Below, piece after piece: positions 5,831-56,899 of a stretch of 64,000 bases of DNA (positions within the stretch are counted from its first letter, which is position 1; each line of letters starts with the position of its first letter). The stretch is taken from positions 542,928 through 606,927 of the forward strand of contig JBAZUE010000001.1 in the NCBI GenBank assembly GCA_041661605.1, read 5' to 3'. The translations under genes were made by a program, and so were the position numbers. This stretch comes from Candidatus Omnitrophota bacterium (lineage in GTDB: Bacteria; Omnitrophota; Gorgyraeia; Gygaellales; Profunditerraquicolaceae). Below the pieces are notes generated by a model. It did not search any database and had not been told where the DNA came from. It saw only the letters and a program-made list of their open reading frames with translations.

Positions 5831-7055
5831 TGCGGATCAAATCCGCGTAAGTTTCTCTTTTTCTGATTACACGCACTTTATCCTTAGATACCATGACTTC
5901 GGCGGCCCTGAGGCGGGAATTATAGTTGCTGGACATACTAAACCCGTATGCTCCGGCACTCATCACCGCCAGATAATCGCCTTCTTTAACATCAGCGATC
6001 AGGCGTTCCTTTGCCAAGAAGTCCCCGCTTTCACAAATCGGGCCGACCACATCGGCTTTTTCAGCCTTAGCAATCTTGCGCAAAGGCAGGATATTGTGAT
6101 ATGCCCCGTAAAGGGCCGGACGGATCAAATCATTCATCCCGGAGTCAACGATAATAAACTTCTTTTTCGGGGTATTTTTGATATATAAAACTTTCGTTAA
6201 CAATATCCCGGCATTACCGGCAATAAAGCGGCCCGGCTCCATAATTATCTTTAAGCCAGTGCTCTTTAAAAGAGGAATTATTTCATCGGCATAAACCTGG
6301 GCGGTCTGAGGGGCCTCCTGATCATAAATAATCCCCATCCCCCCTCCGATATTCAGGTATTCAAGCTTAATACCTTTTGCGCCTAACTTTTTAATAAAAC
6401 AACCCACCTTCTTGAGAGCCGCCACAAAAGGAGCGCTTTCGGTGATCTGCGAACCAATGTGGATATGCAAGCCACAGATTTTCACGTTCTTGAATTTATT
6501 ACGCAGGAGCAGAATTTTATAAGCGTTATTTAAATCAATGCCGAACTTATTGGTAATTTTTCCGGTAGTGATAAATTTATGCGTCTTGGCTTCCACATCG
6601 GGATTTATGCGGATAGCTACCCGGGTAATTTTACCGAGCCTACCGGCAATACGGTCGATGCTCCTTAATTCTGGAAGCGATTCTACGTTAAAGAAAAGTA
6701 TTCCTTTAGTGATTGCCGTGGCAATCTCCGCTTCGGTTTTACCCACAGAGGCATAAACAATTTTATTGGCAGGGCAGCCAACTTTTAAGGCGCGAAAAAG
6801 TTCGCCACCGGAGACAATGTCTAATCCGGCGCCTTTGGCAATTAAAGCTTTTAGTATGGACAGATTGGAATTGGCTTTTACCGAATAGCAGATAAGAGGG
6901 TTGATTTGAGAAAACGCGGCTTTTAATTTTAAATAGTGATCAATCAACGTATGATAGCTATAGACATAAAGCGGCGTTCCAAATGTTTTAGCTAATTTTC
7001 CAACTAAAACATTTTCGCAATAAAGCCGGGTATTCTTATATTTAAATTCGTGCAT
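5814..7055 (-). CDS. lysA: diaminopimelate decarboxylase
   Basis: YSVKANSN (PLP Lys), GGGMGI and CESGD motifs; 413 aa. The ATG is fused to the end of 51-bp element copy 1. Confidence 0.9.
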   Translation of the reverse strand: MHEFKYKNTRLYCENVLVGKLAKTFGTPLYVYSYHTLIDHYLKLKAAFSQINPLICYSVKANSNLSILKALIAKGAGLDIVSGGELFRALKVGCPANKIVYASVGKTEAEIATAITKGILFFNVESLPELRSIDRIAGRLGKITRVAIRINPDVEAKTHKFITTGKITNKFGIDLNNAYKILLLRNKFKNVKICGLHIHIGSQITESAPFVAALKKVGCFIKKLGAKGIKLEYLNIGGGMGIIYDQEAPQTAQVYADEIIPLLKSTGLKIIMEPGRFIAGNAGILLTKVLYIKNTPKKKFIIVDSGMNDLIRPALYGAYHNILPLRKIAKAEKADVVGPICESGDFLAKERLIADVKEGDYLAVMSAGAYGFSMSSNYNSRLRAAEVMVSKDKVRVIRKRETYADLIRNEFNK

Positions 7056-7103
7056 TTGTTTTCTAACCTAATCTACTGCATACAGTTATATACACTGTCT
7101 ACA
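7053..7103 (-). repeat. 51-bp unit-boundary element, copy 1 (class 1, diverged)
   Basis: Plus-strand read CATTTGTTTTCTAACCTAATCTACTGCATACAGTTATATACACTGTCTACA. It contains the argH stop (TAG 7099-7101) and the lysA start (ATG 7053-7055). Confidence 0.8.
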
Positions 7104-8472
7104 ATCGGCGGAGCCAGGCAGATAATTGCTGCTTAACCAGCTTGGGATTCGTGCTGCCAAAAGATTGCTTTAAATTTACCGATGCCCAGGCATTAAGTAT
7201 GTTTCTCACATCCGCTTTAAGTTTTGGGGAATATTTGTTCAGCTCCTTATCGCTTAAAGAAGATATCTTTTTACCCTTATCCAGGCAGTCCCTGACCATT
7301 CTGCCTACAATATCATGCGCCTGACGATAAGAAATTCCCCTCTTAATCAAATACTCCACGATATCCACCGAAAACAAAGATTCATCTTGAACTTTGGCGG
7401 CAATCGCTTCTTTTTCAATCACAATATTGGCAAAGAGCGCCATAAAAATCTCAAGGATATTCTTAATCGTGTCAATCGCGTCAAAAAGCGGAGGCTTATC
7501 TAACTGCATATCCCTGTTATAAGAAGTAGGCAGCCCCTTCATCAGCATTATTACGCTGGAGAGGTTCCCTTGAATTTGCCCTACTGAACCGCGGATCAGC
7601 TCTAATATATCCGGGTTCTTTTTATGCGGCATAATACTGGAGCCGGTGCAAAAAGAAAAATCGATATCGATAAAATTAAATTCTTTTGTCGACCAAAGTA
7701 TCAAATCTTCGGCTATGCGCGATAAATGCACGGAAAGTATCGTTAAATCCGCCAGCACTTCAATTATATAATCGCGGTCGCTGACTGAATCAATACTGTT
7801 AGCGGTCAGGCCGGCAAACTTAAGTTCCTTCTTCACAAAATTCCGGTCAATAGCAAGCCCCGTTCCGGAGAACGCGCAGGAACCCAGCGGCATAGAATCA
7901 ATTCTATTCTTGGCGTCAAGCAATCTCTGCTTGTCCCTTTCCAATGCCTCTATGTATGCCAATAAATGATGCGCTAAAAGCACGCATTGAGCAATCTGCA
8001 TATGCGTATATCCCGGTATGACAACATTAGAATTACTGGCAGCGAATTTTAGTATTGCTTTCTGTAACTGCGCGCTAAACTCCACCAGGTTATCCACCTC
8101 GCTTCTTAAATACATCCTGGTATCCAAAGCAATCTGGTCATTCCGGGATCTTGCGGTATGCAATTTATGAGCCGGCTCGCCGATTTTCTTATTCAAAAGC
8201 TCCTGGATATTAGAATGGATATCTTCAGCGGAGGGATCAAACTTAAATTTTCCGCTGGCTACATCCTTGAGTATCGCATTTAAACCTTTAACTATCCGCG
8301 AACTATCCTTTTGAGGAATAATCTTCTGTCTGGCTAACATTTTGGCATGGGCAATGCTGCCTAAAATATCATATTTAGCCAATCTCTGGTCAAAGGCTAT
8401 CGATGAAGTGAATTTATCGGTCAAAGCATTTGTCTTCTTATTAAACCTTGTTCCCCAAAGTTTCTTCGCCAT
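7099..8472 (-). CDS. argH: argininosuccinate lyase
   Basis: TARSRNDQ and GSSIMPHKKNPD signature. Start moved to MAKKLWG (ATG 8472) because GGAGGA lies 7 nt upstream; the ORF-track start 8556 overlaps argG. Confidence 0.92.
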   Translation of the reverse strand: MAKKLWGTRFNKKTNALTDKFTSSIAFDQRLAKYDILGSIAHAKMLARQKIIPQKDSSRIVKGLNAILKDVASGKFKFDPSAEDIHSNIQELLNKKIGEPAHKLHTARSRNDQIALDTRMYLRSEVDNLVEFSAQLQKAILKFAASNSNVVIPGYTHMQIAQCVLLAHHLLAYIEALERDKQRLLDAKNRIDSMPLGSCAFSGTGLAIDRNFVKKELKFAGLTANSIDSVSDRDYIIEVLADLTILSVHLSRIAEDLILWSTKEFNFIDIDFSFCTGSSIMPHKKNPDILELIRGSVGQIQGNLSSVIMLMKGLPTSYNRDMQLDKPPLFDAIDTIKNILEIFMALFANIVIEKEAIAAKVQDESLFSVDIVEYLIKRGISYRQAHDIVGRMVRDCLDKGKKISSLSDKELNKYSPKLKADVRNILNAWASVNLKQSFGSTNPKLVKQQLSAWLRRL

Positions 8473-8479
8473 CTTCTCT

Positions 8480-8525
8480 TCCTCCACGAGGAGGACACCC
8501 GCGCAATACAAATCAGCGCGGGGTG
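8480..8525 (-). promoter_or_regulatory. argG-argH intercistronic structure: GC hairpin plus SD-sequestering stem
   Basis: RNA sense CACCCCGCGC-TGATTTGTATT-GCGCGGGTG followed immediately by TCCTCC-TCGT-GGAGGA. The GGAGGA is the argH Shine-Dalgarno, 7 nt before the ATG at 8472. Confidence 0.55.
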
Positions 8526-8531
8526 CCTTTC

Positions 8532-9713: not shown

Positions 9714-9722
9714 CTTAACTCC

Positions 9723-12690: not shown

Positions 12691-12699
12691 TGTTCCTCT

Positions 12700-12846
12700 C
12701 TAGTTGTACTGCGCGTTTATTTTTATATACTCCGGAGTAAGGTCCGAAGTATAAACAGTTGCTCCGGCTCTGCCGTGCGATAAACTTACCTTCAGCTTTA
12801 CCTGTTTTTGTTTTAAAGAACCCAATTTTATTTCAGCTGACCTTCT
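12700..12846 (-). pseudogene. argJ: argJ C-terminal segment in a shifted frame
   Basis: The frame one nt upstream of the argJ frame reads ...IKLGSLKQKQVKLKVSLSHGRAGATVYTSDLTPEYIKINAQYN* (TAG 12700-12702). This is the conserved ArgJ C-terminus (DL..eY..INA.Y). The junction lies in the A-rich CTGAAATAAAATTGG. Confidence 0.7.
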
Positions 12847-19493: not shown

Positions 19494-19504
19494 TTGTTAC
19501 TCTC

Positions 19505-19545
19505 CTTGGGGACACTTCTCCGATTGGGTCAAGAAACGTCCCTGG
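19505..19545 (-). repeat. 41-nt intercistronic element, copy A2 (leuC-leuD spacer)
   Basis: RNA sense CCAGGGACGTTTCTTGACCCAATCGGAGAAGTGTCCCCAAG, 38/41 identical to A1. It sits directly after the leuC TAA and before the GGAGAG RBS of leuD. Confidence 0.85.
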
Positions 19546-31891: not shown

Positions 31892-31942
31892 TATTTGTTA
31901 TGTAACCATATTATTCACACTGAGTTACATAGACTGTCTACA
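31892..31942 (-). repeat. 51-bp unit-boundary element, copy 2 (class 1)
   Basis: TATTTGTTATGTAACCATATTATTCACACTGAGTTACATAGACTGTCTACA. It supplies the TAG stop (31938-31940) of the DUF3568-like gene. Confidence 0.9.
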
Positions 31943-32847: not shown

Positions 32848-32958
32848 AGTATCCTCCTATCTGACTGGATATATATTCCCACCAATTATAAAAAAATAAA
32901 GCGGTTAATTCCTGATTTTTATGACTTTATTCCACTAGGGGAAAATTGGAAGAAAAAC

Positions 32959-36086: not shown

Positions 36087-36088
36087 AT

Positions 36089-44147: not shown

Positions 44148-44380
44148 TAATTAAAAAGATCCTTCAGCTGGTACTGCTTAGACGCGGCTTTATTCAACGC
44201 GTTAAGAACCCTACGCTGAATCTTCGGCGTCAGGCGCCTGCCCTTAACCGCCCGGTTAATCATCTTATAAGTTAATTGCTCGGTGGAATTATTGACCAAG
44301 TCCGTAGGCTTAAAATTGTGTTCAGCCATAAGCTTGGCGATCGGCTGCGGACCTAGATCATATATAGTATTTTTATTCAC
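44144..44380 (-). CDS. hypothetical small basic protein (possible DNA-binding), translationally coupled to the helicase
   Basis: 78 aa; GTG start; ATGA overlap with the helicase. The basic region AVKGRRLTPKIQRRVLNALNK suggests nucleic-acid binding. Confidence 0.4.
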   Translation of the reverse strand: MNKNTIYDLGPQPIAKLMAEHNFKPTDLVNNSTEQLTYKMINRAVKGRRLTPKIQRRVLNALNKAASKQYQLKDLFNY

Positions 44381-44420
44381 TGCAAAATACCTGTGGTAAA
44401 TTTAAGATACTCTTAACATG

Positions 44421-44482
44421 TATTTGTTTTGGAACAATATTATTTGCAATGAGTTACATAGACTGTCTACAGGGTCTACAGG
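44421..44482 (-). repeat. 51-bp unit-boundary element, copy 5 (class 1) with 9-bp terminal tandem duplication
   Basis: TATTTGTTTTGGAACAATATTATTTGCAATGAGTTACATAGACTGTCTACA followed by a second GTCTACAGG. The symporter stop TAG (44476-44478) lies in the duplicated unit. Confidence 0.9.
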
Positions 44483-45807: not shown

Positions 45808-46902
45808 TTATTTTAACTCACCGGTTACATCAATAATTTGCTGTTGTTTATCATCTATTACTATGGATTTTTGAGGAGCTCCTGGCGCGAGGCTAAATTT
45901 TTTCAGGTCTACCTTTTTCCAGGCGGTATTTTCATAAGTTTTATAATACAAAACAAGGTTTGTTAAATCTTTGATCACTACCCATTGGGCATATCCTTCC
46001 ATATGGACAAGAGGAGCGGGATTTTCTTTAATGGCTCCTTTAGGAATATCGACAATGTTTAAAAGATGCTCTGCCAGATTTACTGCCTCAGCTGCGTCTT
46101 TTGCAGGCAAAGCCGAATCCAAAGAGTACGCCACGCGCACAAACCTGGACGGAGGAGTCCAATCGCCGGGCAGGCCAAGCAGGCCGCTGCCAACGCCGGT
46201 AGGTTCCAGTTTCAAACCGTTAAGCATCCTATCTTTTCTGTCGTGGGCATCCAGATTTATATAATTTCTCAGATTGGTAATCTGCCAGGGAAATTCCGGA
46301 CGATTGGTCATGACTCCCAGCGGATTATCATATATTTTTACTTCTCCGTCAATAAATTCGACGACCAGATTATTTCCGTTGGCATCATGCACGGCGATAT
46401 GCATATATAGCTCTCCGCCTGCTTCTTTCAAATTTATGCCCGTGACGCTTATCTTAGGCAAAGCCTCTTTTACCTCATCCACTGTCGCGAAATTTCCCAT
46501 AATCCAGGAACCAAGGTTGCTCATGGTAACGAATTTACCCGGCTCTGCAGGCTGATACTTTGCGCCTGTGAACATCAACGCGTCAAAAGCAAGGCCCTTT
46601 TCATTAAATCCCTCTACATAGCAATTTTTAAGATTATAGGCATCCACCCCTAAGAATCCATATTTATTCGTCCAGGTTATCCCCTTAGCGCCTTTATCAT
46701 CGATGCTGACAAATTGCTGTCCGGCTGGCACGATGACGACGTTGGAATGAAGATCTATGGGGAATTCCATGGAACGACCGATAACCACGGTATTATCTTC
46801 GGCTTTGATCTGGAAATCAGTACAGGCAAAAGATAGATTAGATGCTAAAACCAAAAAAGAAACTGTCGCGGTTAAGATTACTGCCTTTTTCTTTCCGTTC
46901 AT
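45808..46902 (-). CDS. choloylglycine hydrolase family (linear amide C-N hydrolase, Ntn)
   Basis: Signal peptide ends in FA|CTDFQIK, placing the nucleophile Cys at the mature N-terminus. RSMEF and NRPEFPWQ blocks. Confidence 0.8.
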   Translation of the reverse strand: MNGKKKAVILTATVSFLVLASNLSFACTDFQIKAEDNTVVIGRSMEFPIDLHSNVVIVPAGQQFVSIDDKGAKGITWTNKYGFLGVDAYNLKNCYVEGFNEKGLAFDALMFTGAKYQPAEPGKFVTMSNLGSWIMGNFATVDEVKEALPKISVTGINLKEAGGELYMHIAVHDANGNNLVVEFIDGEVKIYDNPLGVMTNRPEFPWQITNLRNYINLDAHDRKDRMLNGLKLEPTGVGSGLLGLPGDWTPPSRFVRVAYSLDSALPAKDAAEAVNLAEHLLNIVDIPKGAIKENPAPLVHMEGYAQWVVIKDLTNLVLYYKTYENTAWKKVDLKKFSLAPGAPQKSIVIDDKQQQIIDVTGELK

Positions 46903-46939
46903 TTATTTTCTCCTTTTTCAGGTTTAGTTTAGTGATTTG

Positions 46940-46948
46940 ATTATAGCA
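46940..46948 (-). promoter_or_regulatory. extended -10 promoter candidate for hydrolase-symporter
   Basis: Minus-strand TGCTATAAT, about 38 nt upstream of the ATG at 46902 (AAAGGAGAAAA RBS). Confidence 0.4.
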
Positions 46949-47009
46949 CTTTCAGGCAAAAATAATAGGAAAAGACATCTTGCCAGGGCTAATTAGCCTG
47001 CGGTTCTAT

Positions 47010-47774
47010 TTATCTGGTGCTTCGCCTAAATTCAGGCCAGGGGAAACTTTTGCCCGGGCAATCTGTCCTGGCTCCCCGGACCTGGCCATGCCCAAGGATG
47101 CATCCGGAGGAAATATTATAATATTTTCTTAATTTATTTACCAGATAAACCAAGGCCTCCATTTGTTTTGGGGTCGGTGTTTCGTTATTAAAATTGCCCA
47201 CCAAACATATGCCGATTGCTTTTGAATTCATGCCGGAAGCTTTGCAATGAGAGCCATTCTCCTTTTTCAGCCACCTGGGAGAAACTTCAATCTGCCCGTC
47301 TTTTTTGCCTTTGCTGCCGTTATCAATTACAAAATGATACCCTAACCCATCCCAGCCTTTCGAAAGATGCGCCTTGTCAAAAGCCAGCGAGTTGCCTTCA
47401 TCTGTAGCGCTATGATGTATAATAATATACCTCCATTTATTGGATGGATAGAGCGAAACAACCGGGACAAGCGGAGCAGCGGCCGGGATCAAAAGACACT
47501 GGCCTTTTCTTAAAAGGGGTTCTTTTGAATTTAGCCTGTTGGCGCGCAATATTTCATTTGAGGGGACATTGTACATCTTGCTGATCCGCCAAAGAGTTTC
47601 TCCTGGAGCAACGATATGGGAGATATCCTGTCTTGAGGCACAAACAGGAACTTGCGGCTGAAGTTGCCGGGTTTGCACCGGCTGAGGTTTAATCGGAGGC
47701 GTAGCGCAAGAACTTAATATGCATGTCAATATCAAGGCTGCACCGGAATGTATAAATTTGCATGCTTTTTTCAT
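47010..47774 (-). CDS. LysM-domain N-acetylmuramoyl-L-alanine amidase (Amidase_2) lipoprotein
   Basis: Lipobox ILSSC. LysM region HIVAPGETLWRISKMYNV. Amidase_2 region IIIHHSAT...GYHFVIDN...CPG. Start set to MKKACKF (47774); the ORF-track start 47795 lies inside element copy 6. Confidence 0.85.
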   Translation of the reverse strand: MKKACKFIHSGAALILTCILSSCATPPIKPQPVQTRQLQPQVPVCASRQDISHIVAPGETLWRISKMYNVPSNEILRANRLNSKEPLLRKGQCLLIPAAAPLVPVVSLYPSNKWRYIIIHHSATDEGNSLAFDKAHLSKGWDGLGYHFVIDNGSKGKKDGQIEVSPRWLKKENGSHCKASGMNSKAIGICLVGNFNNETPTPKQMEALVYLVNKLRKYYNISSGCILGHGQVRGARTDCPGKSFPWPEFRRSTR

Positions 47775-47778
47775 AATG

Positions 47779-47829
47779 TATTTGTTTTGTAACAATATTA
47801 TTCACAACAAGTTATATACACTGTCTACA
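47779..47829 (-). repeat. 51-bp unit-boundary element, copy 6 (class 1)
   Basis: TATTTGTTTTGTAACAATATTATTCACAACAAGTTATATACACTGTCTACA. It supplies the ABC-F stop TAG (47825-47827). The amidase ATG lies 4 nt beyond the other end. Confidence 0.9.
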
Positions 47830-49717
47830 GTTCTAGGTCTTCAAGGTGCTCCCAGCGCTGGTTGGCCTTGTCCAACTCGCGGGAAAGCTCCTCAGATCTG
47901 GCTTCGGCTTTAGCTTTTTCCTCGGGGCTTTTCTGGTAAAAGTTCAAATCCGCGAATAACGCGTATAGCGCTTTTTGTTCCTCTTCCATTTTTTCTATTC
48001 TTAAGGGCAACTCGGCTAATTCTTTCTGTTCTTTAAAGGTAAGTTTGCGTGGGGTAACCGGCTTTGCTTTTTTTATCGGCTCTTTTTTTACTTTGATCTT
48101 TGGCGGTTCAGGGGTTGTTTCTTGAGGGCGCTGGCTTAACCAGTCGTCATATCCTCCAGGATATTCATTGACTACTCCGTTGCCCTCCAAGGCAATGGTT
48201 GAGGTAACTACGTTATTCAGGAATTGCCGGTCATGGCTGACTAAAAGTAAGGTGCCGTCATACTCCGAGAGCAATTCTTCCAGAAGTTCCAAGGTCTCGA
48301 TATCCAAGTCGTTGGTCGGTTCATCCATTACCAGCACATTAGACGGCTTGGAAAAAAGCCGGGCAAGCAGCAGGCGGTTGCGCTCCCCTCCGGAAAGAAC
48401 CTTGACTTTGGTCCGGCTGCGGTCCGGGGAGAAAAGAAAATCCTGCAGGTATCCCAGGATATGCCGGGGTTTGCCGTTAATGGTTATAGTATCGCCTGAA
48501 TCGTTGACATTTTCAGCCACAGTTTTTTCTTCATCCAACTGGCCGCGCAATTGGTCGTAATAAGCGACTTCTAAGTTAGTGCCCAGGGTGACTTTTCCTC
48601 TCTGCGGCTCAAGTTTGCCTAAGAGAAGGCGTAAAAGTGTGGTCTTGCCGCTGCCGTTGGGGCCGATCAAACCGATTTTATCGTGGCGCATTATATTGGT
48701 GGAAAAATCCCGGATCAAGGTTTTATCGCCATAGCCAAAATACAGCTGGGCTGCCTTGATTACTTTGTGCCCGGAGAGAACTGATTTTTGCGTGCGCATG
48801 CGCACCATACCTTCTTCTTTACGCTGGGTCTTTTTCTCTTGCCTTAAACGTTCGAGGGCCTTGACCCTTCCTTCATTACGGCAACGCCGGGCCTTAACCC
48901 CCTGGCGGATCCAGACTTCTTCTTCGGCTAACTTTTTATCAAAATGATTCCATTCCGATTCTTCAATATCCAATGCCGCCTGTTTACGTTCCAAGAAGGT
49001 TTTGTAATCGCATGACCAGCTAAAGATCCTGCCCCGGTCAAGTTCAAGTATGCGGGTGGCCAGGTGTGTCATAAATAAACGGTCATGGGTAACAAAGAAT
49101 ACTGTGCCGGGATAACCGGCCAAGAAATCCTCCAGCCAGTTTATGGAATCTATATCTAAATGATTTGTCGGCTCATCCAGAAGTAAAACTTCCGGTTTTA
49201 ACACCAGGGCTCTGGCTAAGAGCACGCGGCGTTTCTGGCCTCCGGAAAGAGTCTGAAAATCACTATCGGCGTCCAGCTTCATCCGAGAAATAACATACTC
49301 AACCTGGTTATTCACATCCCAGCTTGCAGTGCGATCCAATTCTGCCTGCAGGTTATCCAGCTGGCGGAATAATTCTTTGGTATGCTCAGTTTGCAGACGA
49401 TGGGTGAGTTTATGGTAGCGGCTTAAAAGATTGGCCTGCTCTCCCAACCCGGAGAGGACAATATCATAAACATTGCCCTCCATTTGGACCGAGACTTCCT
49501 GAGGAAGATAGGCGACCTGGATGCCTTTTTGCAGGACCAGTTGTCCTGCGTCGGGCGAAAGCTCCCCTGCTATTATCTTCATAAGCGTGGTTTTGCCGGC
49601 TCCGTTACGGCCAAGCAGGGCGACCCGTTCGCCCGGCTCCAGCTGCAGGCTTAGGCGGTCAAAAATAAGCGGACCGGCGAACTTTAAACTAATCTCTTGC
49701 AAACTAATTAATGACAT
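47825..49717 (-). CDS. uup: ABC-F family ATPase (Uup-like)
   Basis: Two ABC cassettes (GRNGAGKTT / LSGGQKRR and GPNGSGKTT / LSGGERNR) plus a C-terminal coiled coil; no TM domain. Confidence 0.85.
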   Translation of the reverse strand: MSLISLQEISLKFAGPLIFDRLSLQLEPGERVALLGRNGAGKTTLMKIIAGELSPDAGQLVLQKGIQVAYLPQEVSVQMEGNVYDIVLSGLGEQANLLSRYHKLTHRLQTEHTKELFRQLDNLQAELDRTASWDVNNQVEYVISRMKLDADSDFQTLSGGQKRRVLLARALVLKPEVLLLDEPTNHLDIDSINWLEDFLAGYPGTVFFVTHDRLFMTHLATRILELDRGRIFSWSCDYKTFLERKQAALDIEESEWNHFDKKLAEEEVWIRQGVKARRCRNEGRVKALERLRQEKKTQRKEEGMVRMRTQKSVLSGHKVIKAAQLYFGYGDKTLIRDFSTNIMRHDKIGLIGPNGSGKTTLLRLLLGKLEPQRGKVTLGTNLEVAYYDQLRGQLDEEKTVAENVNDSGDTITINGKPRHILGYLQDFLFSPDRSRTKVKVLSGGERNRLLLARLFSKPSNVLVMDEPTNDLDIETLELLEELLSEYDGTLLLVSHDRQFLNNVVTSTIALEGNGVVNEYPGGYDDWLSQRPQETTPEPPKIKVKKEPIKKAKPVTPRKLTFKEQKELAELPLRIEKMEEEQKALYALFADLNFYQKSPEEKAKAEARSEELSRELDKANQRWEHLEDLEL

Positions 49718-49802
49718 AGTGACTCTCTTAAAATAATTATCTGATTAGATAATTATTTAGATTATTTTTAAAACAAATGATTTCGGAATTATCCTCGGCC
49801 GC

Positions 49803-50240
49803 TTAGGCGCGGTCTCTGCTGCGTTTGCGGAAAGACGGCTTTCTTCTTGCGCCGAAACTGCGGTCTCCCATAGCAGGAGAACCTTCTCTATCTTTACGCT
49901 TGGCAAAACAATCTTTGCAGTATACTGGACGGTCTCCGGTGGGCCTGAAGGGAACCTCGCATTCAGTTTTGCATTCCGCGCAGATAGCTTTGGTAAAACT
50001 TCTATCCTGGAAGCTGTTTTCCCGTCCACCTCTATCGCGTCGAAAAGAGCTCTCGAAGCGTCGGGAAGGCCTGCCGTATTCTTTTCTCTCTGAAGACTTT
50101 TGCGCAGATTGAGCAATCAAGGTATCGATCTTCTGCTCCAGAAAGGTTAGCTGCTGTTGAATTTTACCAATTGTACCGGATAGATCCGGCTGAGCAGGCG
50201 ATTCAGCTGCGTGACTTTTACGTTTAAATATTTTTTTCAT
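49803..50240 (-). CDS. CxxC-x17-CxxC domain protein
   Basis: CAECKTECEVPFRPTGDRPVYCKDCF flanked by R/S/K-rich low-complexity sequence. AAGGAGAAAA RBS. Confidence 0.6.
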   Translation of the reverse strand: MKKIFKRKSHAAESPAQPDLSGTIGKIQQQLTFLEQKIDTLIAQSAQKSSERKEYGRPSRRFESSFRRDRGGRENSFQDRSFTKAICAECKTECEVPFRPTGDRPVYCKDCFAKRKDREGSPAMGDRSFGARRKPSFRKRSRDRA

Positions 50241-50290
50241 TTTTCTCCTTGTTTGTTTATATGGTTAAACTTGCTGTGCTTTGTTTAACT

Positions 50291-50318
50291 ACTATACACC
50301 TTTTACAGGATAAAGCAA
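50291..50318 (-). promoter_or_regulatory. sigma70-like promoter of the CxxC-x17-CxxC gene
   Basis: Minus-strand TTGCTT-N16-TATAGT. Confidence 0.5.
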
Positions 50319-50326
50319 TCGAATGG

Positions 50327-51040
50327 CTATTTTAACGTGGAGCGGGAAAGAAGCTCCCTGGCTCCATTTTTATCCTGAATATAGACTTCAGGGACAAATT
50401 CGATGGAGTTAGGAATAAGATCGGCGATAACTTTCTTTAAACGCGCCTGCTGCGTTTCATTTTGGGGATCAAAAATGGGATTTTGGCTTAAGTCGTTTAA
50501 TAAAAGAATAACCGGCTCGGACGCAAATATAAAATCTTTCAAAAGCTGCTTAACAAGAAGATCTAAATAATCCGGTTTGTCTTTGAACACATCCACAGCG
50601 GTTTTAAAAGTAATCTTTCCCCAATCGTAAGAGACGGTTTTATGCAGCAGGGCGTAGACGGAAGAATATCTGAGCATTCTAATTTTACCGTCTGATAATT
50701 TAGCTGCCTCATTCATGATGAGGGTACTTAACTCCGCGTGTTTAAATGTTTTGATTTCTTTGTGTATGTCGATAGTCAGAAGGTCAAAAATATAAACGCC
50801 GCGGACGCTGGATGTGGCGCTGATTGTGCTACGTTTTAGAAAATCCTCTACCGCATCCCAGAGGATTTTTTCATCATTGCGCACAAAATTTAATACTAAA
50901 AGAGTGCAGGCCTGGCCTTCGCGGACAACTTTATATTGACGGACTTTATCCTCGTTGCGGCCGACATATGAAATTTCGTCAAAAAGCGGCATATGCTGGA
51001 AGAGGTTTGATTTTTGAAATCCGAAATCGATTAAATTCAT
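50327..51040 (-). CDS. hypothetical protein
   Basis: 237-aa ORF with no recognisable motif; starts 14 nt after element copy 7. Confidence 0.4.
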   Translation of the reverse strand: MNLIDFGFQKSNLFQHMPLFDEISYVGRNEDKVRQYKVVREGQACTLLVLNFVRNDEKILWDAVEDFLKRSTISATSSVRGVYIFDLLTIDIHKEIKTFKHAELSTLIMNEAAKLSDGKIRMLRYSSVYALLHKTVSYDWGKITFKTAVDVFKDKPDYLDLLVKQLLKDFIFASEPVILLLNDLSQNPIFDPQNETQQARLKKVIADLIPNSIEFVPEVYIQDKNGARELLSRSTLK

Positions 51041-51049
51041 ATCTTCAAA

Positions 51050-52048
51050 CTAAAGAATTGTTTTGTAACTTATTAATACACAGATAGTTATATAAAGCGT
51101 CTTACTAATCATTGATTCCATTTCCAAACGAGTTTTTGCGCGGGAGGACTGCTCCCTTAGCGGCCGGATGTTGCGGATACCCTTGGTGTACCAGCCAAAA
51201 AATTTGCGGAATAAAATTACCCCGTTTCTTTCTCCGTAAAAATCGACTGAGGCGCCTAGATGTTCCAGCATTACCTTAACTACCTTTGGCCTTTCGGGCT
51301 TTGGGAGGATTTTGCCGGTTTTTAAGAATTCTTTTATTTCTTTGAATATCCACGGGTTTCCAAATGAACCGCGGGCAATAACTAAGCCATCACAATTTGT
51401 TTCGCCAAGCATTTTTTTGGCTAATTGCTCCGAGAAAACGTCGCCACTGGCAATAACCGGTATGCTTAATGCCTTCTTTACTTCAGCAAGTACTTTATAA
51501 TCCACGCTACCGCCGTACTCCTGGGTTTTAGTCCTTCCGTGGATAAATAATCCGCTGACTCCGGCATCCTGGGCGCAAAGCGCTACTTCCCTGGCATTAA
51601 TAGTATCTTTATCCCAGCCTAAACGCATTTTTACGGTTACCGGGATTTTAGAGTTTTTTACTATCAACTTAAGTAATTTATGAAGCTTCCTGGGTTCTTT
51701 TAACAGGGCAGCTCCCTCACCGCGGCGGACGACTTTCTTCGCAGGACAGGCAGCATTAAAATCAAGGATATCAAATTTATAAGCTTTCAGGACGTCCAAG
51801 GCTTTTAGAATAAATTTCTCTTCACAGCCTAATATCTGAACACCCAGAGGCTTATCTTTCGGCAAGGTAGAAAGCATGTGCCGGGTCTTCCTGCTTTTGT
51901 GAGAGATTGAGCGACAGTTGATCATCTCGACAAACGCCAGCTCCGCGCCAAACTTCCGACAGAGCATGCGAAATGGCAAATCTGTTACTCCGGCCATTGG
52001 AGCCAGGATTAAATTTGATTTTAGTTTTAAGCTGCCGATTTTAAACAT
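51050..52048 (-). CDS. dusB: tRNA-dihydrouridine synthase
   Basis: LAPMAGVTDLPFR, DFNAACP and FIHGRT motifs. Start set to MFKIGS (52048). The C-terminal 17 codons are read from element copy 7. Confidence 0.85.
   Translation of the reverse strand: MFKIGSLKLKSNLILAPMAGVTDLPFRMLCRKFGAELAFVEMINCRSISHKSRKTRHMLSTLPKDKPLGVQILGCEEKFILKALDVLKAYKFDILDFNAACPAKKVVRRGEGAALLKEPRKLHKLLKLIVKNSKIPVTVKMRLGWDKDTINAREVALCAQDAGVSGLFIHGRTKTQEYGGSVDYKVLAEVKKALSIPVIASGDVFSEQLAKKMLGETNCDGLVIARGSFGNPWIFKEIKEFLKTGKILPKPERPKVVKVMLEHLGASVDFYGERNGVILFRKFFGWYTKGIRNIRPLREQSSRAKTRLEMESMISKTLYITICVLISYKTIL
51055..51105 (-). repeat. 51-bp unit-boundary element, copy 7 (class 2)
   Basis: GAATTGTTTTGTAACTTATTAATACACAGATAGTTATATAAAGCGTCTTAC. 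The dusB ORF reads completely through it. Confidence 0.8.
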
Positions 52049-52049
52049 A

Positions 52050-52084
52050 CTAAAATAATTTAGCGGAGGCTTCAACCTCCGCTA
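52050..52084 (-). terminator. terminator-like hairpin between element copy 8 and the dusB start
   Basis: Minus-strand TAGCGGAGG-TTGAAG-CCTCCGCTA followed by AATTATTTTAG. The dusB ATG follows immediately. Confidence 0.45.
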
Positions 52085-52093
52085 CAGATTCCG

Positions 52094-52144
52094 TAATTGT
52101 TTTGTAACTTATAGAAATATAAAGAGATACATAAAACGTCTTAT
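52094..52144 (-). repeat. 51-bp unit-boundary element, copy 8 (class 2)
   Basis: TAATTGTTTTGTAACTTATAGAAATATAAAGAGATACATAAAACGTCTTAT. It begins right after the pgi TAA-TAA-TAA triple stop. Confidence 0.75.
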
Positions 52145-52146
52145 TA

Positions 52147-53613
52147 TTATAAGATTAAATTGGGATCTTTAGGGAGCGGGTGATTTTTTATTTCATTGAT
52201 TATGTTTTGGGAGACGCCAGGCTTGCCAAGTTTGTAATACATATAATTCTTGTAGCCTTCTACCCCGGGCTGGTCAAAAGCGTTGATGTTAAGCAGCTCA
52301 CCTTCAAAAGCAGTAGCCATCTCAAAAAAGAATAAAAGCGCTCCCCAGTTATACGCGGATACTTCAGGCATAATAATCGTACAGTTCGGCCGGTTTTCGC
52401 TGGCTAATGCCCACTCTGTCGCCTCCTGGGCCAAATGCATAAGTGAGCTAAAACTTTTCCCGGAAAGCAGATCCCCTTTACCCGGTATTTTTAAATCTGT
52501 TTTAAATTTCTCTACGCGGATAAAAGTAAGAACTTTGTTGTCTTCTCCTTCAACATTATTTTGCTGGATAGAATGCAGATCGTTGGTTCCGGCTGCGGAT
52601 ATGGGGGTCCTGCCTTTGCTAAATAAGGATTTCTCATCCGCCAGCCAATTCTCTGATCCATCAATACCTACTTGGATCTTGCGGTGGTATTTCTTGCCCA
52701 AGCTTTCAGCTAAAAGCTGCACATACCAATCTGCCGTTGATTTAAGGGTTTGAGAAAAAGGCATTAATATGGCTAATGATTTTGCTTTTTTACGGTAGAG
52801 AATTGTATGTAATAAAGCATACATATACGCCGGATTTTTCAATATATCAGCCTGGCTGCAGCGGTCAAACATCTCCTTAACCCCTGAAAAAAGCTCTGTT
52901 ATATTTACGCCCACAATTGCCAGGTGAATCAGGCCCATATTAAACTCTGAGAACCTGCCGCCCACGCCTTTTAAAATCGGAAAGGCGCGAAAGCTTAAAG
53001 GATCTTTTTCCTGCTCACGTTCTACCTTTGAGCGCAGAGCGCCTGATTGCGGGTCTGTAATCGCCAAAATCTGCCTGCCGTATTTCTTGCCTACTCCTTT
53101 TTTAAGCCAAGCTTCCACTAACGCAAATGCCGCCTTAGGCTCTGTGGTTTCTCCGGATTTAGAGATAATAATAACAAATGTTTTCTTGGGATTGAGGTTC
53201 TTTAATAAAACCTGCAGGGTATCCGGATCAAGATTATTGCCTTCTAGGTAAATCCGGGGATTTTTCTTTCTTGAGGCCTTAAATTCATTGTAATAAGGCG
53301 CACACAACGCGTCCTGCGCGGCTTTTAAGCCTAAATATGAACCGCCGATTCCTAAAAAGACAACATTTTCATATTTTTGAGAGATCTGACCCCCGAGTTT
53401 CTGGATCTTTGCAATCACCTCTTTGTCCTGCTGAAAAAGATTCGCCCACTCAAGGCCTAAATTGACTCTTGCTTGAGGATTAGCAATAATTTTATTTAAG
53501 TGCGCTGCGCAAAGTTGCGCCTCGGGAAGGATCTCATCGAGATCCTGCTGGCTTACCCCGTGGTCTCCGACGTTAGAATTAAACATATTGTTAAAATCGA
53601 ATTTTAGGCTCAT
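52147..53613 (-). CDS. pgi: glucose-6-phosphate isomerase
   Basis: LGIGGSYLG, IISKSGETTE and DQPGVE motifs. Confidence 0.88.
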   Translation of the reverse strand: MSLKFDFNNMFNSNVGDHGVSQQDLDEILPEAQLCAAHLNKIIANPQARVNLGLEWANLFQQDKEVIAKIQKLGGQISQKYENVVFLGIGGSYLGLKAAQDALCAPYYNEFKASRKKNPRIYLEGNNLDPDTLQVLLKNLNPKKTFVIIISKSGETTEPKAAFALVEAWLKKGVGKKYGRQILAITDPQSGALRSKVEREQEKDPLSFRAFPILKGVGGRFSEFNMGLIHLAIVGVNITELFSGVKEMFDRCSQADILKNPAYMYALLHTILYRKKAKSLAILMPFSQTLKSTADWYVQLLAESLGKKYHRKIQVGIDGSENWLADEKSLFSKGRTPISAAGTNDLHSIQQNNVEGEDNKVLTFIRVEKFKTDLKIPGKGDLLSGKSFSSLMHLAQEATEWALASENRPNCTIIMPEVSAYNWGALLFFFEMATAFEGELLNINAFDQPGVEGYKNYMYYKLGKPGVSQNIINEIKNHPLPKDPNLIL

Positions 53614-53623
53614 ATTTATCTCC

Positions 53624-54655
53624 TTAACTACCGAATTCGGCTAACCTTAAAATTAATTTCTTAGTATCATCCCAACCCAGGCAGGGATCGGTGATTGACT
53701 GGCCAAAAACACTGCCTCCGACTTTTTGACTGCCTTCTGCCAGGTAGCTTTCCACCATCAGGCCTTTGACTGTTTTCCTTAAATCTTTAGACTGAGACAG
53801 GCTGCTCATTATCTCTTCGGCTATCCGGGGCTGCTGGCTGAAATCCTTATCGGAGTTGGCGTGGTTAGTATCGACGATAAGGGCCGGATTCGCAAGATTG
53901 CGTTTTAAATACAGCTGGATAAAATGAATCAAATCTTCGTAATGGTAATTCGGGATGCTTTGGCCCTGGCGGTTAATCGCTCCGCGAAGGATGCAGTGCG
54001 CAAGAGGATTGCCGTCAGTTTTGACCTCCCAGCCGTTATAGATAAAGGTATGCTGGATCTGGGCGGCTTCCACGGAATTAAGTAAAACGTTCAAATCTCC
54101 GCTGGTGGGGTTTTTCATGCCAACCGGGATATCCAAGCCGCTTACTGTCAGGCGGTGCTCCTGGTTCTCCACGGAACGGGCCCCGATTGTGACATAACTT
54201 AAAATATCCTCCAGATACGGATAGTTTCCCGGATAAAGCATCTCATCTGCGGCGGTTAATCCGGATTCACTTAGCACCCTGATGTGCATGCGCCGGATAG
54301 CCTTAATTCCCCGGGAGATGTCAGGGTCACCGGAGGCCTTAGGTTGATGCAGCATACCTTTATAGCCTTTTCCGGTTGTGCGGGGTTTATTTGTATAAAT
54401 GCGCGGGATTAAAATCAGCCTGTCCTTGACTTTACTCTGAAGAGAACCAAGGCGCGATACATATTCCGAAAGTGCGTTCTCATCATCAGCCGAACATGGG
54501 CCGATAATCAGAAGCAGGCGGTTATCATTTCCTTTTATAACATTTAAGATATCCTTGTCGCGGACCGCTTTTACTTTTTTCAAATTCGCCGACATAGGCA
54601 TCAGCTGAAGGATTTCAGAGGGAGTGGGAATTTTCTGCAGGTATGTAAAACTCAT
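53624..54655 (-). CDS. aroG: 3-deoxy-7-phosphoheptulonate (DAHP) synthase, class I
   Basis: LLIIGPCS, NKPRTT and GMKNPT motifs of type I-alpha DAHP synthases. The paralog (aroF/G/H) is not assignable. Confidence 0.85.
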   Translation of the reverse strand: MSFTYLQKIPTPSEILQLMPMSANLKKVKAVRDKDILNVIKGNDNRLLLIIGPCSADDENALSEYVSRLGSLQSKVKDRLILIPRIYTNKPRTTGKGYKGMLHQPKASGDPDISRGIKAIRRMHIRVLSESGLTAADEMLYPGNYPYLEDILSYVTIGARSVENQEHRLTVSGLDIPVGMKNPTSGDLNVLLNSVEAAQIQHTFIYNGWEVKTDGNPLAHCILRGAINRQGQSIPNYHYEDLIHFIQLYLKRNLANPALIVDTNHANSDKDFSQQPRIAEEIMSSLSQSKDLRKTVKGLMVESYLAEGSQKVGGSVFGQSITDPCLGWDDTKKLILRLAEFGS

Positions 54656-54658
54656 GGT

Positions 54659-54988
54659 CTATTTGTCTTGCTGGATTATTTTAATTGTGGTGCGCAGGCC
54701 GTCTTTCCATGGCCAAAGCATGGCAAGGATGCTGTCGGTATCTGAAGTTTTATAATACAACGTCTGGCCGGGCATGATCCCGCCAAGGCCGTTAACTGTT
54801 TCCTGCAGTTTATATGGCAGCCTGGACTTTGATGGAAAAACCGGCTCCCCCATCATACCCTTCAGCTGCAGGCTGAGTTTTTCCAGCTCCTGCTGGACAA
54901 TGACTGCTTCAAAAAAATTATCGCAATCAGCGCGCAAGGCTTCAAAATTAAAGGCTTTAATATTCTTTCTCAGGGAACTAAAATCCAT
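54659..54988 (-). CDS. hypothetical protein
   Basis: 109-aa ORF, 3 nt upstream of the DAHP synthase gene; no recognisable motif. Confidence 0.35.
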   Translation of the reverse strand: MDFSSLRKNIKAFNFEALRADCDNFFEAVIVQQELEKLSLQLKGMMGEPVFPSKSRLPYKLQETVNGLGGIMPGQTLYYKTSDTDSILAMLWPWKDGLRTTIKIIQQDK

Positions 54989-55042
54989 AGCTCCTCCTTG
55001 GGTTGGTGAATTTATTATAACACAGCTGGAGAATATTTAAAA

Positions 55043-55480
55043 TCAGAGAATCTTTAATAAGTTAAGTCCGGTTTGAGGGTCGATCTCCTTGGTTGCCTTA
55101 ATTCCTTTTAACTCCAGGACTACCGCCTCAATAACCAGGAAAACTTTTGACTTGCCGCGCACGCAGCCGGTTAAGACTTTGTTCTTCTTGCCCATACTAC
55201 CATGGATATGTATCTGCGGGCCTTTGGCATTTACAAAGATTGTGCCAATGCCCATGACCTCCCAGCCGTCTTTAAAATTTACTTTGTTCGGCAGCGGCGG
55301 GATTACCGGTTTCCTGGGTCCGGTAACCAGTTCGCCTTTTTTAAGGGCTCCGATAAAGATCATCGTTGCCGCTTTGATGCGCTCTTTCTTGGCGAAAGAA
55401 CCCAGCTTATCGATTAAAATATCGTCATCTTCGAATTTTAGAAGAAATACCCTGCCGAGCGAGCCTTTAGTATATTTCAT
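55043..55480 (-). CDS. PPC (DUF296) domain protein
   Basis: GRVFLLKFEDDDIL...ATMIFIGALKKGEL...HIHGSMG pattern of PPC/DUF296 proteins. Confidence 0.6.
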   Translation of the reverse strand: MKYTKGSLGRVFLLKFEDDDILIDKLGSFAKKERIKAATMIFIGALKKGELVTGPRKPVIPPLPNKVNFKDGWEVMGIGTIFVNAKGPQIHIHGSMGKKNKVLTGCVRGKSKVFLVIEAVVLELKGIKATKEIDPQTGLNLLKIL

Positions 55481-55706
55481 TTTGCAAAAGCTGATAATAC
55501 TTGGTTAAAGATTTTAAAGCATTAAAAAAGATTAAGCCCGTGAAATAACTTATAATAATAACCACCGCGCTGATAATGATCTTCATTCTCTTGTTAAAAT
55601 CCGGATTAGCCCAAACCAAAGGAAGCATAAGCGGGCCTACACAAAGGAAGGAGATAATTAGCGACCTGGTCTTAAAATACCATTTTTTCTGACCCTTATT
55701 ATCCAT
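55467..55706 (-). CDS. small membrane protein
   Basis: 79 aa with two hydrophobic helices; overlaps its neighbours by 1 and 14 nt. Confidence 0.4.
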   Translation of the reverse strand: MDNKGQKKWYFKTRSLIISFLCVGPLMLPLVWANPDFNKRMKIIISAVVIIISYFTGLIFFNALKSLTKYYQLLQNEIY

Positions 55707-56089
55707 TATTGTTTTTTCTTGCGGGCCTTAGATTTATTTATTCGCGCTTTATGTTCCACGCATAGAACTTCGGCGATGGGAGCGATCTGGCCTCCCTCGT
55801 AAGGGAACTCTTTGCAGGTTACCGGCTTTAAGGCGTAGTCGATCTTATGTATCCTGCATAAGCCATCAGGATCCTGAAAAACGCATTTTTCATCCTCATA
55901 GCTGGTGCCCACCTTGTATCCGGAAGGAAAATCTTTATCTATTTCCAGATGGAAAAAGTCTCCTTTTATGCCAAGGGAAAGTATTTTTTTCGCCTCTTCC
56001 AAATCAATCCAAGCTCCGAAGCGGCAGCAATCCGCCTGGCTCCTGCATTTCTGACAATCAATAGCCTCATCTATTTTTTTGCTTTTCAT
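55706..56089 (-). CDS. YkgJ family cysteine-cluster protein
   Basis: CQKCRSQADCCRF (CxxCx5CC) and later C..C pairs. TATAAT lies 7 nt upstream of the ATG. Confidence 0.65.
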   Translation of the reverse strand: MKSKKIDEAIDCQKCRSQADCCRFGAWIDLEEAKKILSLGIKGDFFHLEIDKDFPSGYKVGTSYEDEKCVFQDPDGLCRIHKIDYALKPVTCKEFPYEGGQIAPIAEVLCVEHKARINKSKARKKKQ

Positions 56090-56096
56090 AATTTAT

Positions 56097-56102
56097 ATTA
56101 TA
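56097..56102 (-). promoter_or_regulatory. -10 box giving a probable leaderless ykgJ-family mRNA
   Basis: The TATAAT ends 7 nt before the ATG at 56089; no SD. Confidence 0.4.
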
Positions 56103-56169
56103 CATTTATTAGCTTAAAATCCCAAATACATTTTATGTACCTGGGATCTTAAAGCCGGTTCTTATTTAA

Positions 56170-56370
56170 TTAGGCGATACGCACATTGACCGCGCGCGGG
56201 CCCTTATCGGATTTTTCGATGTCATAAGAAACTGACTGCTCTTCGGTTAAATCCTCAAATTTGGCTTCAACCAAAGCATTACGATGGAAGAATACTTCCC
56301 TGCCATCAGTGTCGCTGATAAAACCAAATCCTCTATCGCGCACTAATTTCTTAATTTTTCCGGTATTCAT
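56170..56370 (-). CDS. cold-shock domain protein (divergent paralog)
   Basis: RGFGFISD (RNP1-like) and VFFHRNAL (RNP2-like) motifs; 66 aa. Confidence 0.8.
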   Translation of the reverse strand: MNTGKIKKLVRDRGFGFISDTDGREVFFHRNALVEAKFEDLTEEQSVSYDIEKSDKGPRAVNVRIA

Positions 56371-56384
56371 CTATACCTCCTTTT

Positions 56385-56424
56385 TAAAAAATAGCCTGAC
56401 CTCAAAAATTTGAAGCCAGGCTAT
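56385..56424 (-). terminator. intrinsic terminator between the two csp genes
   Basis: Minus-strand ATAGCCTGGC-N14-GTCAGGCTAT followed by TTTTTT. The AAGGAGG RBS of the second csp follows at once, with no room for a promoter. Confidence 0.75.
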
Positions 56425-56438
56425 TCTTTTACCAGTGT

Positions 56439-56639
56439 TTAAAGCTTGACTACGTTAGTAGCCTGTTCGCCCTTGGGTCCTTTTTCGATATTGAACTCTA
56501 CTTCCTGACCCTCAGCCAAAGATTTATAACCCTCACCCTGGATTGCGCTGTGATGTACAAATACATCGCTACCGGATTCAGGTGTGATAAACCCAAAACC
56601 TTTCTGGTCTGAAAACCACTTTACTTTACCTTTTGCCAT
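56439..56639 (-). CDS. cspA: cold-shock protein CspA family
   Basis: [17 protein letters not shown] (RNP1) and DVFVHHSAI (RNP2) motifs; 66 aa. Confidence 0.92.
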
Positions 56640-56663
56640 TATTTACTACCCCCTTCCCTAGAA

Positions 56664-56672
56664 ATTATAGCA
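56664..56672 (-). promoter_or_regulatory. extended -10 promoter of cspA-family gene
   Basis: Minus-strand TGCTATAAT, about 25 nt upstream of the ATG at 56639, with a GGGAAGGGGG RBS. Confidence 0.5.
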
Positions 56673-56716
56673 AATAATGACAGAAATACAGTCGCCGGAG
56701 CAAGAAGCGCCGGAAT

Positions 56717-56753
56717 AAAAAAACCGCGAAGGTTAGTTTTCTAAACCTCGCGG
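56717..56753 (-). terminator. strong intrinsic terminator 95 nt after element copy 9
   Basis: Minus-strand CCGCGAGGTT-TAGAAAACT-AACCTTCGCGG followed by TTTTTTT. Confidence 0.8.
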
Positions 56754-56848
56754 CCTACAAACATCTAATCCTTTATTTACTACTTAGGTAAGTGTAACAC
56801 ATTTTGTCTATTTGTCCAGTAAAATTATGTTTATTTTATCACGGTAAA

Positions 56849-56899
56849 GAATTGTTTCGTATTTACTTGGCAAACAAAGAGTTATGTAAAGCGTCTTAC
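56849..56899 (-). repeat. 51-bp unit-boundary element, copy 9 (class 2, most diverged)
   Basis: GAATTGTTTCGTATTTACTTGGCAAACAAAGAGTTATGTAAAGCGTCTTAC. It supplies the Smr gene stop TAA (56896-56898). Confidence 0.7.

Follow-up and report, generated by a model that had tools for sequence, protein, structure and literature searches.

Nine intergenic 51-nt elements in Candidatus Omnitrophota DNA as probable solo units of a RAYT-linked repeat family

The question raised by a 64,000-nucleotide stretch of a Candidatus Omnitrophota genome (contig JBAZUE010000001.1, positions 542,928 to 606,927; hereafter the window, meaning the whole of this stretch) is why the same 51-nt element stands nine times at the ends of its genes, each time on the minus strand. 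A first-pass annotation of the window, made from the letters and the open reading frames (ORFs), took the element for a co-oriented signal at the 3′ ends of transcription units and recognized no described repeat family in it. We consider, with a probability of about 0.85, that the nine copies are solo units of a dispersed, ‘TIRtron’-like repeat family of Candidatus Omnitrophota of the REP/REPIN-RAYT kind (REP, repetitive extragenic palindrome; REPIN, inverted REP doublet; RAYT, REP-associated tyrosine transposase; TIR, terminal inverted repeat). The family is most likely non-autonomous, spread and maintained in trans by a RAYT-type Y1/HUH (IS200-like) transposase encoded elsewhere. The element is thus a small intergenic repeat, probably mobile, and not a new genetic signal for transcript ends.

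A dispersed extragenic repeat of two classes

A weight matrix built from the nine copies returns exactly nine gap-free 51-nt sites in the window, all on the minus strand and scoring 50-76 bits, and no other site on the two strands rises above -9. A degenerate pattern recovers eight of the nine, with 0.00 expected from 100 dinucleotide shuffles, and a repeat search of the window retrieves both of the classes into which the copies had been divided. The positions, sequences, gap-free alignment and shared orientation reported by the first-pass annotation are therefore correct for the window, and its two classes recur across the relatives. The copies occur at about 1 per 7 kb, are all intergenic or overlap only gene ends, and are solo (0/9 with a doublet partner). 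Rfam gave no family match at gathering thresholds over the whole window on both strands, and the window contains no tRNA genes.

Class 1 begins GTAGACAG and class 2 AAGACGC. On the gene strand, class 1 reads 5′-(T)GTAGACAGTCTAYRTAACT-N17-GTTACAAAACAAATA-3′, with its core written TGTAGACAGTCTATGTAACT-N17-GTTACAAAACAAATA, and class 2 reads NNAAGACGYTTTAYRTAWCT-N17-GTTACAAAACAATTM, also written GTAAGACGCTTTAYATAACT-N17-GTTACAAAACAATTC. The 5′ end of class 1 is (T/A)GTAGAC. Among 177 unique copies, A4 is invariant, G5 is present in 176/177, G2 in 106/177 and T3 in 113/177. Class 2 starts with NNAAGACG(C/T), lacks GTAG, and shows a legible CGTC only on the opposite strand. Positions A4 G5 A6 C7, T10, T12 A13, A17, T39, A44 A45, A47 A48 and T50 are invariant, part of this apparent invariance coming from ascertainment, since the copies were collected by pattern and matrix. 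Positions 8-9 and 49 switch jointly (AG with A; GC or GT with T), which defines the two classes; this coupled change could reflect either descent or coupled recognition. At its 3′ end the element extends by one base or more: in 93 of 97 single copies a C or T comes next. Its stops at positions 3, 16 and 26 close all three reading frames by position 28.

With each GTDB species represented by a single genome, a scan for the exact pattern of both classes gave 95 matching stretches from 37 metagenome-assembled genomes (MAGs), 32 of them labelled Candidatus Omnitrophota or Omnitrophica. The remaining labels are Planctomycetales/Planctomycetia, Patescibacteria and Deltaproteobacteria (loci L053, L054, L080, L084, L018 and L070). 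Locus L080 (isolate binchicken_co220_28, labelled Planctomycetales) retains the synteny of the window at 82-86% identity, and its label is probably a misclassification or binning error. The closest genome is MAG STD1_97, with 93-96% nucleotide identity to the window. A matrix made from the pattern hits and applied to 739 kb (the loci plus the window) gives 186 copies above 20 bits over a background mostly below -10. Crude ORF calls cover 90% of this DNA, and 183 of the 186 copies lie outside them (binomial p ~1e-174). Much of the intergenic DNA in the compact genomes of these uncultured bacteria is explained by the repeat. By arrangement, 100 copies are single and 86 are paired.

Inverted doublets and a Y1/HUH transposase between convergent copies

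Pairing follows one geometry. Among 43 neighboring pairs less than 200 nt apart, 42 are convergent and the remaining one is tandem, with no divergent pair at all (p = 5e-13). In these tail-to-tail pairs the AACAAWT ends face one another; the gap is at most 30 nt in 37 of them, 24 having 17-20-nt spacers and fewer having 9-10 nt. The doublets lie mostly between genes running one way, not between convergent genes. Partners usually belong to the same class and differ from each other in the central 17 nt. Folded as single-stranded DNA, doublets give long hairpins (z = -3.4 to -7.6); single units do not stand out from shuffled controls (z = -1.4 to +1.1). A hairpin within the single unit, in which the central 17 nt would extend a GTAAC/GTTAC stem, was dropped because it showed neither covariation nor added stability.

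At locus L042, a 230-aa ORF (461-1153) lies between convergent copies and matches the Pfam family Y1_Tnp (E = 4e-15). The best NCBIfam model for its product is NF047646, REP-associated tyrosine transposase (E = 2e-18, 66.8 bits), compared with E = 1e-4 and 22.4 bits for the IS200 model, and its only PDB match, in which the HUH and Y..NPV motifs align, is 4ER8, the TnpArep of E. coli (E = 0.0015). Homologues of this protein were detected by tblastn in 5 of the 95 element-selected loci; in L042, L078, L055 and L071 the gene stands between two convergent copies, and in L065 it has a copy on one flank only. A further seven transposase loci were obtained via the protein alone, which removes ascertainment through the element. 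These again carry flanking copies, of class 1 in L097, L099 and L101, of class 2 in L103, L104 and L105, and diverged in L106. Altogether, inverted copies enclose the transposase gene in 11 of 12 distinct loci. In L078, L055, L097, L099, L101 and L103-L105 the stop codon of the transposase is overlapped by the right-hand copy, and in L097, L099 and L101 the left-hand copy provides the tyrS stop codon.

Each class flanks its own transposase lineage. The class 1 transposase keeps a conserved tyrS-RAYT-(small genes)-rmlA order in L042, L097, L099 and L101, at 62-77% protein identity, and this synteny suggests a vertically inherited, domesticated, single-locus RAYT. Beside the class 2 lineage lie genes for type II secretion or pilins. 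L099 belongs to SO_2017_LW4_87, which is closely related to the window genome (85-95% identity in shared blocks).

The doublets also resemble a MITE (a miniature transposable element with inverted repeats) of about 120 bp with long TIRs, and the extragenic placement and presence/absence differences would suit a MITE of the conventional kind, descended from an insertion sequence with a DDE transposase, with the doublet as the element and the 51-nt unit as its TIR. This origin is extremely improbable. No consistent target-site duplication was found around the 37 close doublets, the sole transposase between inverted copies is of the Y1/HUH type, half of the copies are intact single units, and doublet partners are unlike in their centers.

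The element belongs instead to a known kind, the repeats tied to REP-associated tyrosine transposases, so that the first-pass annotation's view of it as outside the described families has to be given up. REPs and REPINs are extragenic, often form inverted pairs, lie mostly downstream of ORFs and flank single-copy RAYT genes (PMC3337134; PMC3333891; PMC3733652; PMC5581495). In the REPIN-RAYT systems, inverted REP doublets are replicated by single-copy, vertically inherited RAYTs (PMC3337134; bioRxiv 10.1101/2022.05.22.493013; PMC5581495). REP/BIME-TnpArep units (BIME, bacterial interspersed mosaic element) have been called ‘REPtrons’, and cleavage and joining of the repeats by E. coli TnpArep have been assayed with purified protein and single-stranded DNA (PMC3333891, PMC8266576). 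TIRtrons, described by Di Nocera et al. 2013 (PMC3733652), are RAYT-like genes with long non-REP TIRs that also form dispersed singles, dimers or clusters, with examples in Stenotrophomonas and Acidobacteria; elements of the known kind also occur in the PVC superphylum (PMC3733652).

With REP/BIME of E. coli and REPIN-RAYT of Pseudomonas, the Omnitrophota family shares a short, high-copy extragenic repeat, inverted short-spacer doublets that fold as one hairpin, a Y1/HUH gene at one syntenic locus with inverted flanking copies, class-specific transposase lineages, GTAG at the outer (5′) end of class 1 and the lack of a target-site duplication. It differs in that the unit is AT-rich and 51-52 nt long, against 20-40 nt, that the single unit is not a stem-loop, that class 2 has (A/T)AAGACG in place of GTAG, that single units are conserved as well as doublets, that one consensus is common to dozens of species-level MAGs of a candidate phylum, and that the transposase, of ~228 aa, has a C-terminal extension and falls under the NCBIfam RAYT cut-off. 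TIRtrons (TIRYT) are especially close, having long non-REP inverted flanks, one over the 3′ end of the gene, together with dispersed singles and dimers. The published TIRs share GGGGWSAS or are mutually unrelated, whereas the Omnitrophota unit is AT-rich and starts with GTAGAC or AAGAC, and its density in the window is within the range of a true REP family. The likeness to TIRtrons is one of flank arrangement and dispersal. IS200/IS605 elements and their small non-autonomous derivatives have in common with the Omnitrophota system the Y1 HUH superfamily, the expected single-strand chemistry and the absence of target-site duplications. They differ in having subterminal hairpins where the Omnitrophota gene has 51-nt inverted ends, and in being multi-copy and horizontally transferred, whereas the Omnitrophota gene is syntenic and scores far higher with the RAYT model than with the IS200 model.

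By analogy with E. coli TnpArep and with work on REPINs, the transposase would bind the folded single-stranded doublet, cut beside the conserved GTAGAC/AAGAC end and place copies of the unit at further extragenic positions. Insertions that destroy genes would be lost to purifying selection, and the survivors would lie in the handful of bases that separate a stop codon from the start that follows. Among the papers listed in searches of the paper library, none mentions Omnitrophota together with RAYT, REPIN, REP or IS200. The Omnitrophota lineage of RAYT-linked repeats thus appears undescribed, the kind of element being known, and RAYT-linked repeat systems would be extended to Candidatus Omnitrophota.

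Other features were seen around the transposase gene. In L103 (~3884-3925), L104 (~3966-4000) and L105 (~3964-4000), a TTGACA-N17/18-TAnnnT promoter-like site upstream of the gene directly follows the left-hand copy, with its -35 box abutting the 3′ end of the element; the transposase could autoregulate its expression by binding its own flank. Toxin-antitoxin-type genes (a BrnT toxin with a small partner ORF; a PemK toxin) adjoin the transposase gene in several genomes (L097 10785-11289, L101 5791-6289, L102 836-1352, L104 3462-3782). Downstream of it, nearly every intergenic gap in a rhamnose/nucleotide-sugar cluster holds a copy (L042 344-7477, L097 4785-19195). In L042 the orientation alternates strictly (+ - + - + - + -), so that single genes are bracketed by convergent copies, and one bracketed gene in the cluster encodes an ORF6N-domain protein.

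Strand, stop codons and transcript ends

The alternative advanced first, a dedicated orientation-dependent signal at 3′ ends (for instance for factor-dependent termination, RNA processing or transcript stability), has the window itself in its favor, where all nine copies are co-oriented and lie over, or within 5 nt of, a stop codon. Pfam agrees with the genes named by the first-pass annotation as neighbors of the copies: argH, DUF3568, M42 peptidase, PIF1-like helicase, Na:Ala symporter, ABC-F, Dus, PGI and Smr. In ORF coordinates, the stop codon TAG of argH, the DUF3568 gene and ABC-F is formed by element positions 3-5, the TAA of Smr by positions 2-4, and the TAA of both the M42 peptidase and the helicase by positions 26-28. 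The stop codons of pgi and the symporter lie 3-5 nt upstream of the element, and the dusB ORF crosses the entire copy at 51055 and ends 3 nt beyond it.

Outside the window this picture dissolves. Relative to both flanking genes, 36 single copies are co-oriented and 35 anti-oriented, and in STD1_97 the corresponding numbers are 6 and 7, with 12 more copies paired. In L097, where genes were called independently, single copies that are anti-oriented occupy the spaces between same-strand, Pfam-annotated genes. In either orientation, copies often occupy the whole stop-to-start gap. In the window, too, copies hug downstream starts as tightly as upstream stops where the gap is short. The abutment of stop codons is thus real in the window but does not carry the meaning given to it: the tight association arises because intergenic spacers are very short and the unit closes all frames by position 28. 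Copies would overlap stop codons because insertions persist only in the short stop-to-start gaps of a compact genome. After long co-oriented ORFs in the wider sample, the stop falls at position 3 (TAG) in 25 cases, at position 16 in 10 and at position 26 in 5; that the element's own TAG at position 3 is the commonest stop can be counted in favor of a 3′-end signal. So can the placement of REPs in other bacteria, which are reported to lie mainly downstream of ORFs and in gaps separating genes whose directions of transcription are the same or convergent, and may work as RNA elements (PMC3733652). The 3′-end impression recorded in the first-pass annotation matches this published placement.

The element also differs from the signals that end transcripts in known ways. 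Rho-independent terminators resemble the window copies in standing directly after stop codons on the gene strand. The copies, however, lack a GC-rich stem followed by a U-run, are orientation-independent in the relatives, and in some cases have separate canonical hairpins downstream. No copy was flagged in a terminator scan of 42000-58000, folds are weak, and no gene-strand promoter-like site of the same scan overlaps a copy, in agreement with the earlier exclusion of an intrinsic terminator and of a sigma-70 promoter. Other promoter readings (extended -10, ECF-like GTAAC/CGTC, sigma-54 and Bacteroidota-type TAnnTTTG, as well as sigma-70) were rejected for wrong hexamers or spacing; random orientation and convergent pairs only 18-20 nt apart rule them out as well. 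An Xer/dif-like site, a DNA uptake sequence, an integron attC site and a LexA or Fur box were further candidates, set aside when the link to the transposase emerged. In annotation, the motif should therefore not be read as a promoter or terminator.

Separate hairpins were noticed downstream of four copies on the minus strand, at 52083-52062, 56755-56717, 36629-36602 and 31841-31785. The first is a terminator-like GC hairpin between the 52094 copy and dusB, the second a canonical hairpin with a T-run ~95 nt downstream of the 56849 copy, and the last a long hairpin downstream of the 31892 copy; two of the four have T-runs and look like canonical terminators. Since these ordinary hairpins stand apart, downstream of the copies, the elements are probably transcribed within 3′ untranslated regions (UTRs).

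A signal for transcript ends is also difficult to reconcile with individual sites. The argH-lysA copy fills the whole gap and its positions 49-51 are the lysA ATG, so that a terminator there would silence lysA. At the dusB junction of L050 (~3790-3990), the element is absent and the TGA of dusB overlaps the ATG of the next gene (ATGA), and this junction functions in its absence. In the window and in L016, exactly this position is taken by the element together with 14 nt, and dusB acquires a 20-residue tail; in the window the two genes are thereby parted. The statement that no copy lies between translationally coupled cistrons was therefore circular. Together with the 1:1 strand ratio, the lack of significant structure or covariation in single units and the ordinary hairpin terminators separately downstream of at least two copies (those at 52094 and 56849), these observations make a dedicated 3′-end signal quite improbable. 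The first-pass annotation had itself named a lack of strand association and a match to a known family as grounds against its interpretation, and it fails on both, because the relatives show no strand association and the element is of a known kind. Any effects on transcript ends would be secondary, a consequence of transcription within 3′ UTRs or intercistronic RNA and not the element's raison d'être.

Presence, persistence and the nine window copies

Comparison of orthologous loci, proposed in the first-pass annotation, gives a mixed picture: copies are shared at several sites, and the dusB and Smr sites are empty in some relatives. In L080 the block formed by the 44421 copy, a small ORF, the PIF1-like helicase gene and the 42799 copy is absent, and the symporter and the holin-like gene stand 8 nt apart (6226-6234). 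From this comparison, the block at 42796-44486 (the helicase and an 80-aa ORF without a Pfam match) looks like a cassette-like insertion between two direct copies. The element marks synteny breakpoints and what look like cassette-like insertions. Extra DNA beside the orthologue of the 44421 copy in L003 (~1690-1590) was set aside, as it consists of ~110 nt of unrelated sequence and an N-run, probably an assembly gap; the apparent 340-nt ‘insertion’ reported there by BLAST is largely an assembly artefact and not an informative polymorphism.

Several observations weigh against the assignment to a mobile RAYT-linked family. With respect to the transposase, its score of 66.8 bits lies under the curated cut-off of 80 for NF047646, tblastn found no transposase gene within the window, and the gene's presence in the source genome is suggested by the relatives. 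With respect to the unit, the mean folding energy of 177 unique copies is -2.72 kcal/mol, as in column-permuted controls (-2.72), and covariation is lacking in the candidate stem that pairs columns 14-20 with 36-42 (z between -2 and +1.4), as well as in pairs further in. Since a single unit is not palindromic, it falls outside the classical definition of a REP, and recognition by the transposase may need a doublet. As for mobility, it is suggested by presence and absence between species and not by a clean recent insertion, the compared genomes being only ~80% identical, at which exact insertion boundaries are not readable. The scores of single copies are no lower than those of their paired counterparts (median 54 vs 50 bits), and single copies persist at orthologous sites such as argH-lysA, with flanking genes 70-97% identical; in these persisting copies the center diverges and the invariant columns hold. 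Because intact, persistent single copies are unlike decaying relics, they leave room for a host function. Finally, the 9/9 co-orientation in the window has p = 0.004 under the 1:1 ratio seen elsewhere. It is either a local fluctuation or the reason why the window drew attention, and is otherwise unexplained. A replication-strand bias was tried as its cause through GC skew and abandoned, the skew being fully confounded with gene orientation in the 8-kb loci.

Two related alternatives would give the units a role in the host. In the first, the element would be a DNA site exapted by the host for a RAYT-derived or other DNA-binding protein, serving chromosome structuring, insulation or regulation, with mobility now marginal. 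The invariant positions are kept in orthologous single copies even where flanking genes are only 70-80% identical, degeneracy is no greater in single than in paired copies, the RAYT keeps its synteny and is inherited vertically, and the RAYT literature argues for co-option by the host (PMC5581495). We nevertheless consider such exaptation very improbable. Part of the invariance stems from ascertainment by pattern and matrix. Replacement or gene conversion by an active RAYT would give equal conservation, and the presence/absence differences between species show that individual sites are dispensable. In the second, a clade-conserved RAYT system would recognize the 51-nt non-hairpin unit, and single copies would be selectively kept at fixed intergenic sites as binding sites of the domesticated transposase; this is rather unlikely. 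If it were true, the units would supply stops, C-terminal tails and even starts and, as binding sites, would serve the host, for example in structuring the chromosome or insulating adjacent genes, and class 2 (GACG/CGTC, without GTAG) would be a non-GTAG repeat class with a dedicated tyrosine transposase. Any host function of the units or of the transposase is unlikely overall. For the RAYT-linked family preferred here, the non-hairpin unit, the two classes with cognate transposases and the long-lived intact singles nonetheless bear on the host role of RAYTs and their repeats.

The copies alter the ends of several genes: they encode predicted C-terminal residues of dusB, the M42 peptidase and the helicase, and the predicted lysA start codon lies inside one. 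The copy at 7053..7103 (class 1, minus strand, as are all nine), at the argH/lysA junction, is the most diverged of its class and has orthologous copies in L090, L095, L048 and L010. The class 1 copy at 31892..31942 follows the DUF3568 gene, recG lies 371 nt past it, and orthologous copies are found in L037 and L047. At 36644..36694 (class 1), the ORF of the M42 peptidase enters 25 nt into the element and ends in the tail VDSLCNLL; orthologous copies again occur in L037 and L047. The helicase ORF ends within the class 1 copy at 42799..42849 with the similar tail VDSLRNLL, and the holin-like gene, with a Shine-Dalgarno sequence, begins 15 nt downstream. The copy at 44421..44471 (class 1) lies 4 nt past the symporter stop. 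The class 1 copy nearest the consensus, at 47779..47829, is located between ABC-F and a LysM-amidase gene, the ATG of which is 4 nt downstream, and has an orthologous copy in L006.

The remaining three copies are of class 2. That at 51055..51105 lies inside the 3′ end of the dusB ORF, which gains the 20-residue tail SKTLYITICVLISYKTIL by reading through it (window 51050-51160), and its orthologous site is the empty one in L050. The copy at 52094..52144 stands 2 nt past the pgi stop, and in L019 the corresponding pgi-dusB junction is occupied by a copy of class 1. The copy at 56849..56899, after the Smr gene, is present in L064 and L079 and absent from the orthologous gap in L013 and L066.

Gene content also varies among close relatives, at window positions 32937-36606, 27880-29428 and 58631-60369. 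L047 lacks the PgaA-like TPR/beta-barrel and GT2 genes and a 525-aa ORF (27860-29437), and a 583-aa ORF is missing from L064; one boundary of such variation lies 38 nt from the 36644 copy. An unrelated 47-nt repeat, with no exact match in the 106 fetched loci, occurs twice in the window (4118-4164 and 19502-19548, 91% identical). It contains a GGGGA...TCCCC hairpin and lies within two pairs of biosynthetic genes, separating dapA (DHDPS) from dapB in one and the large from the small aconitase-family subunit (leuC/leuD-like) in the other.

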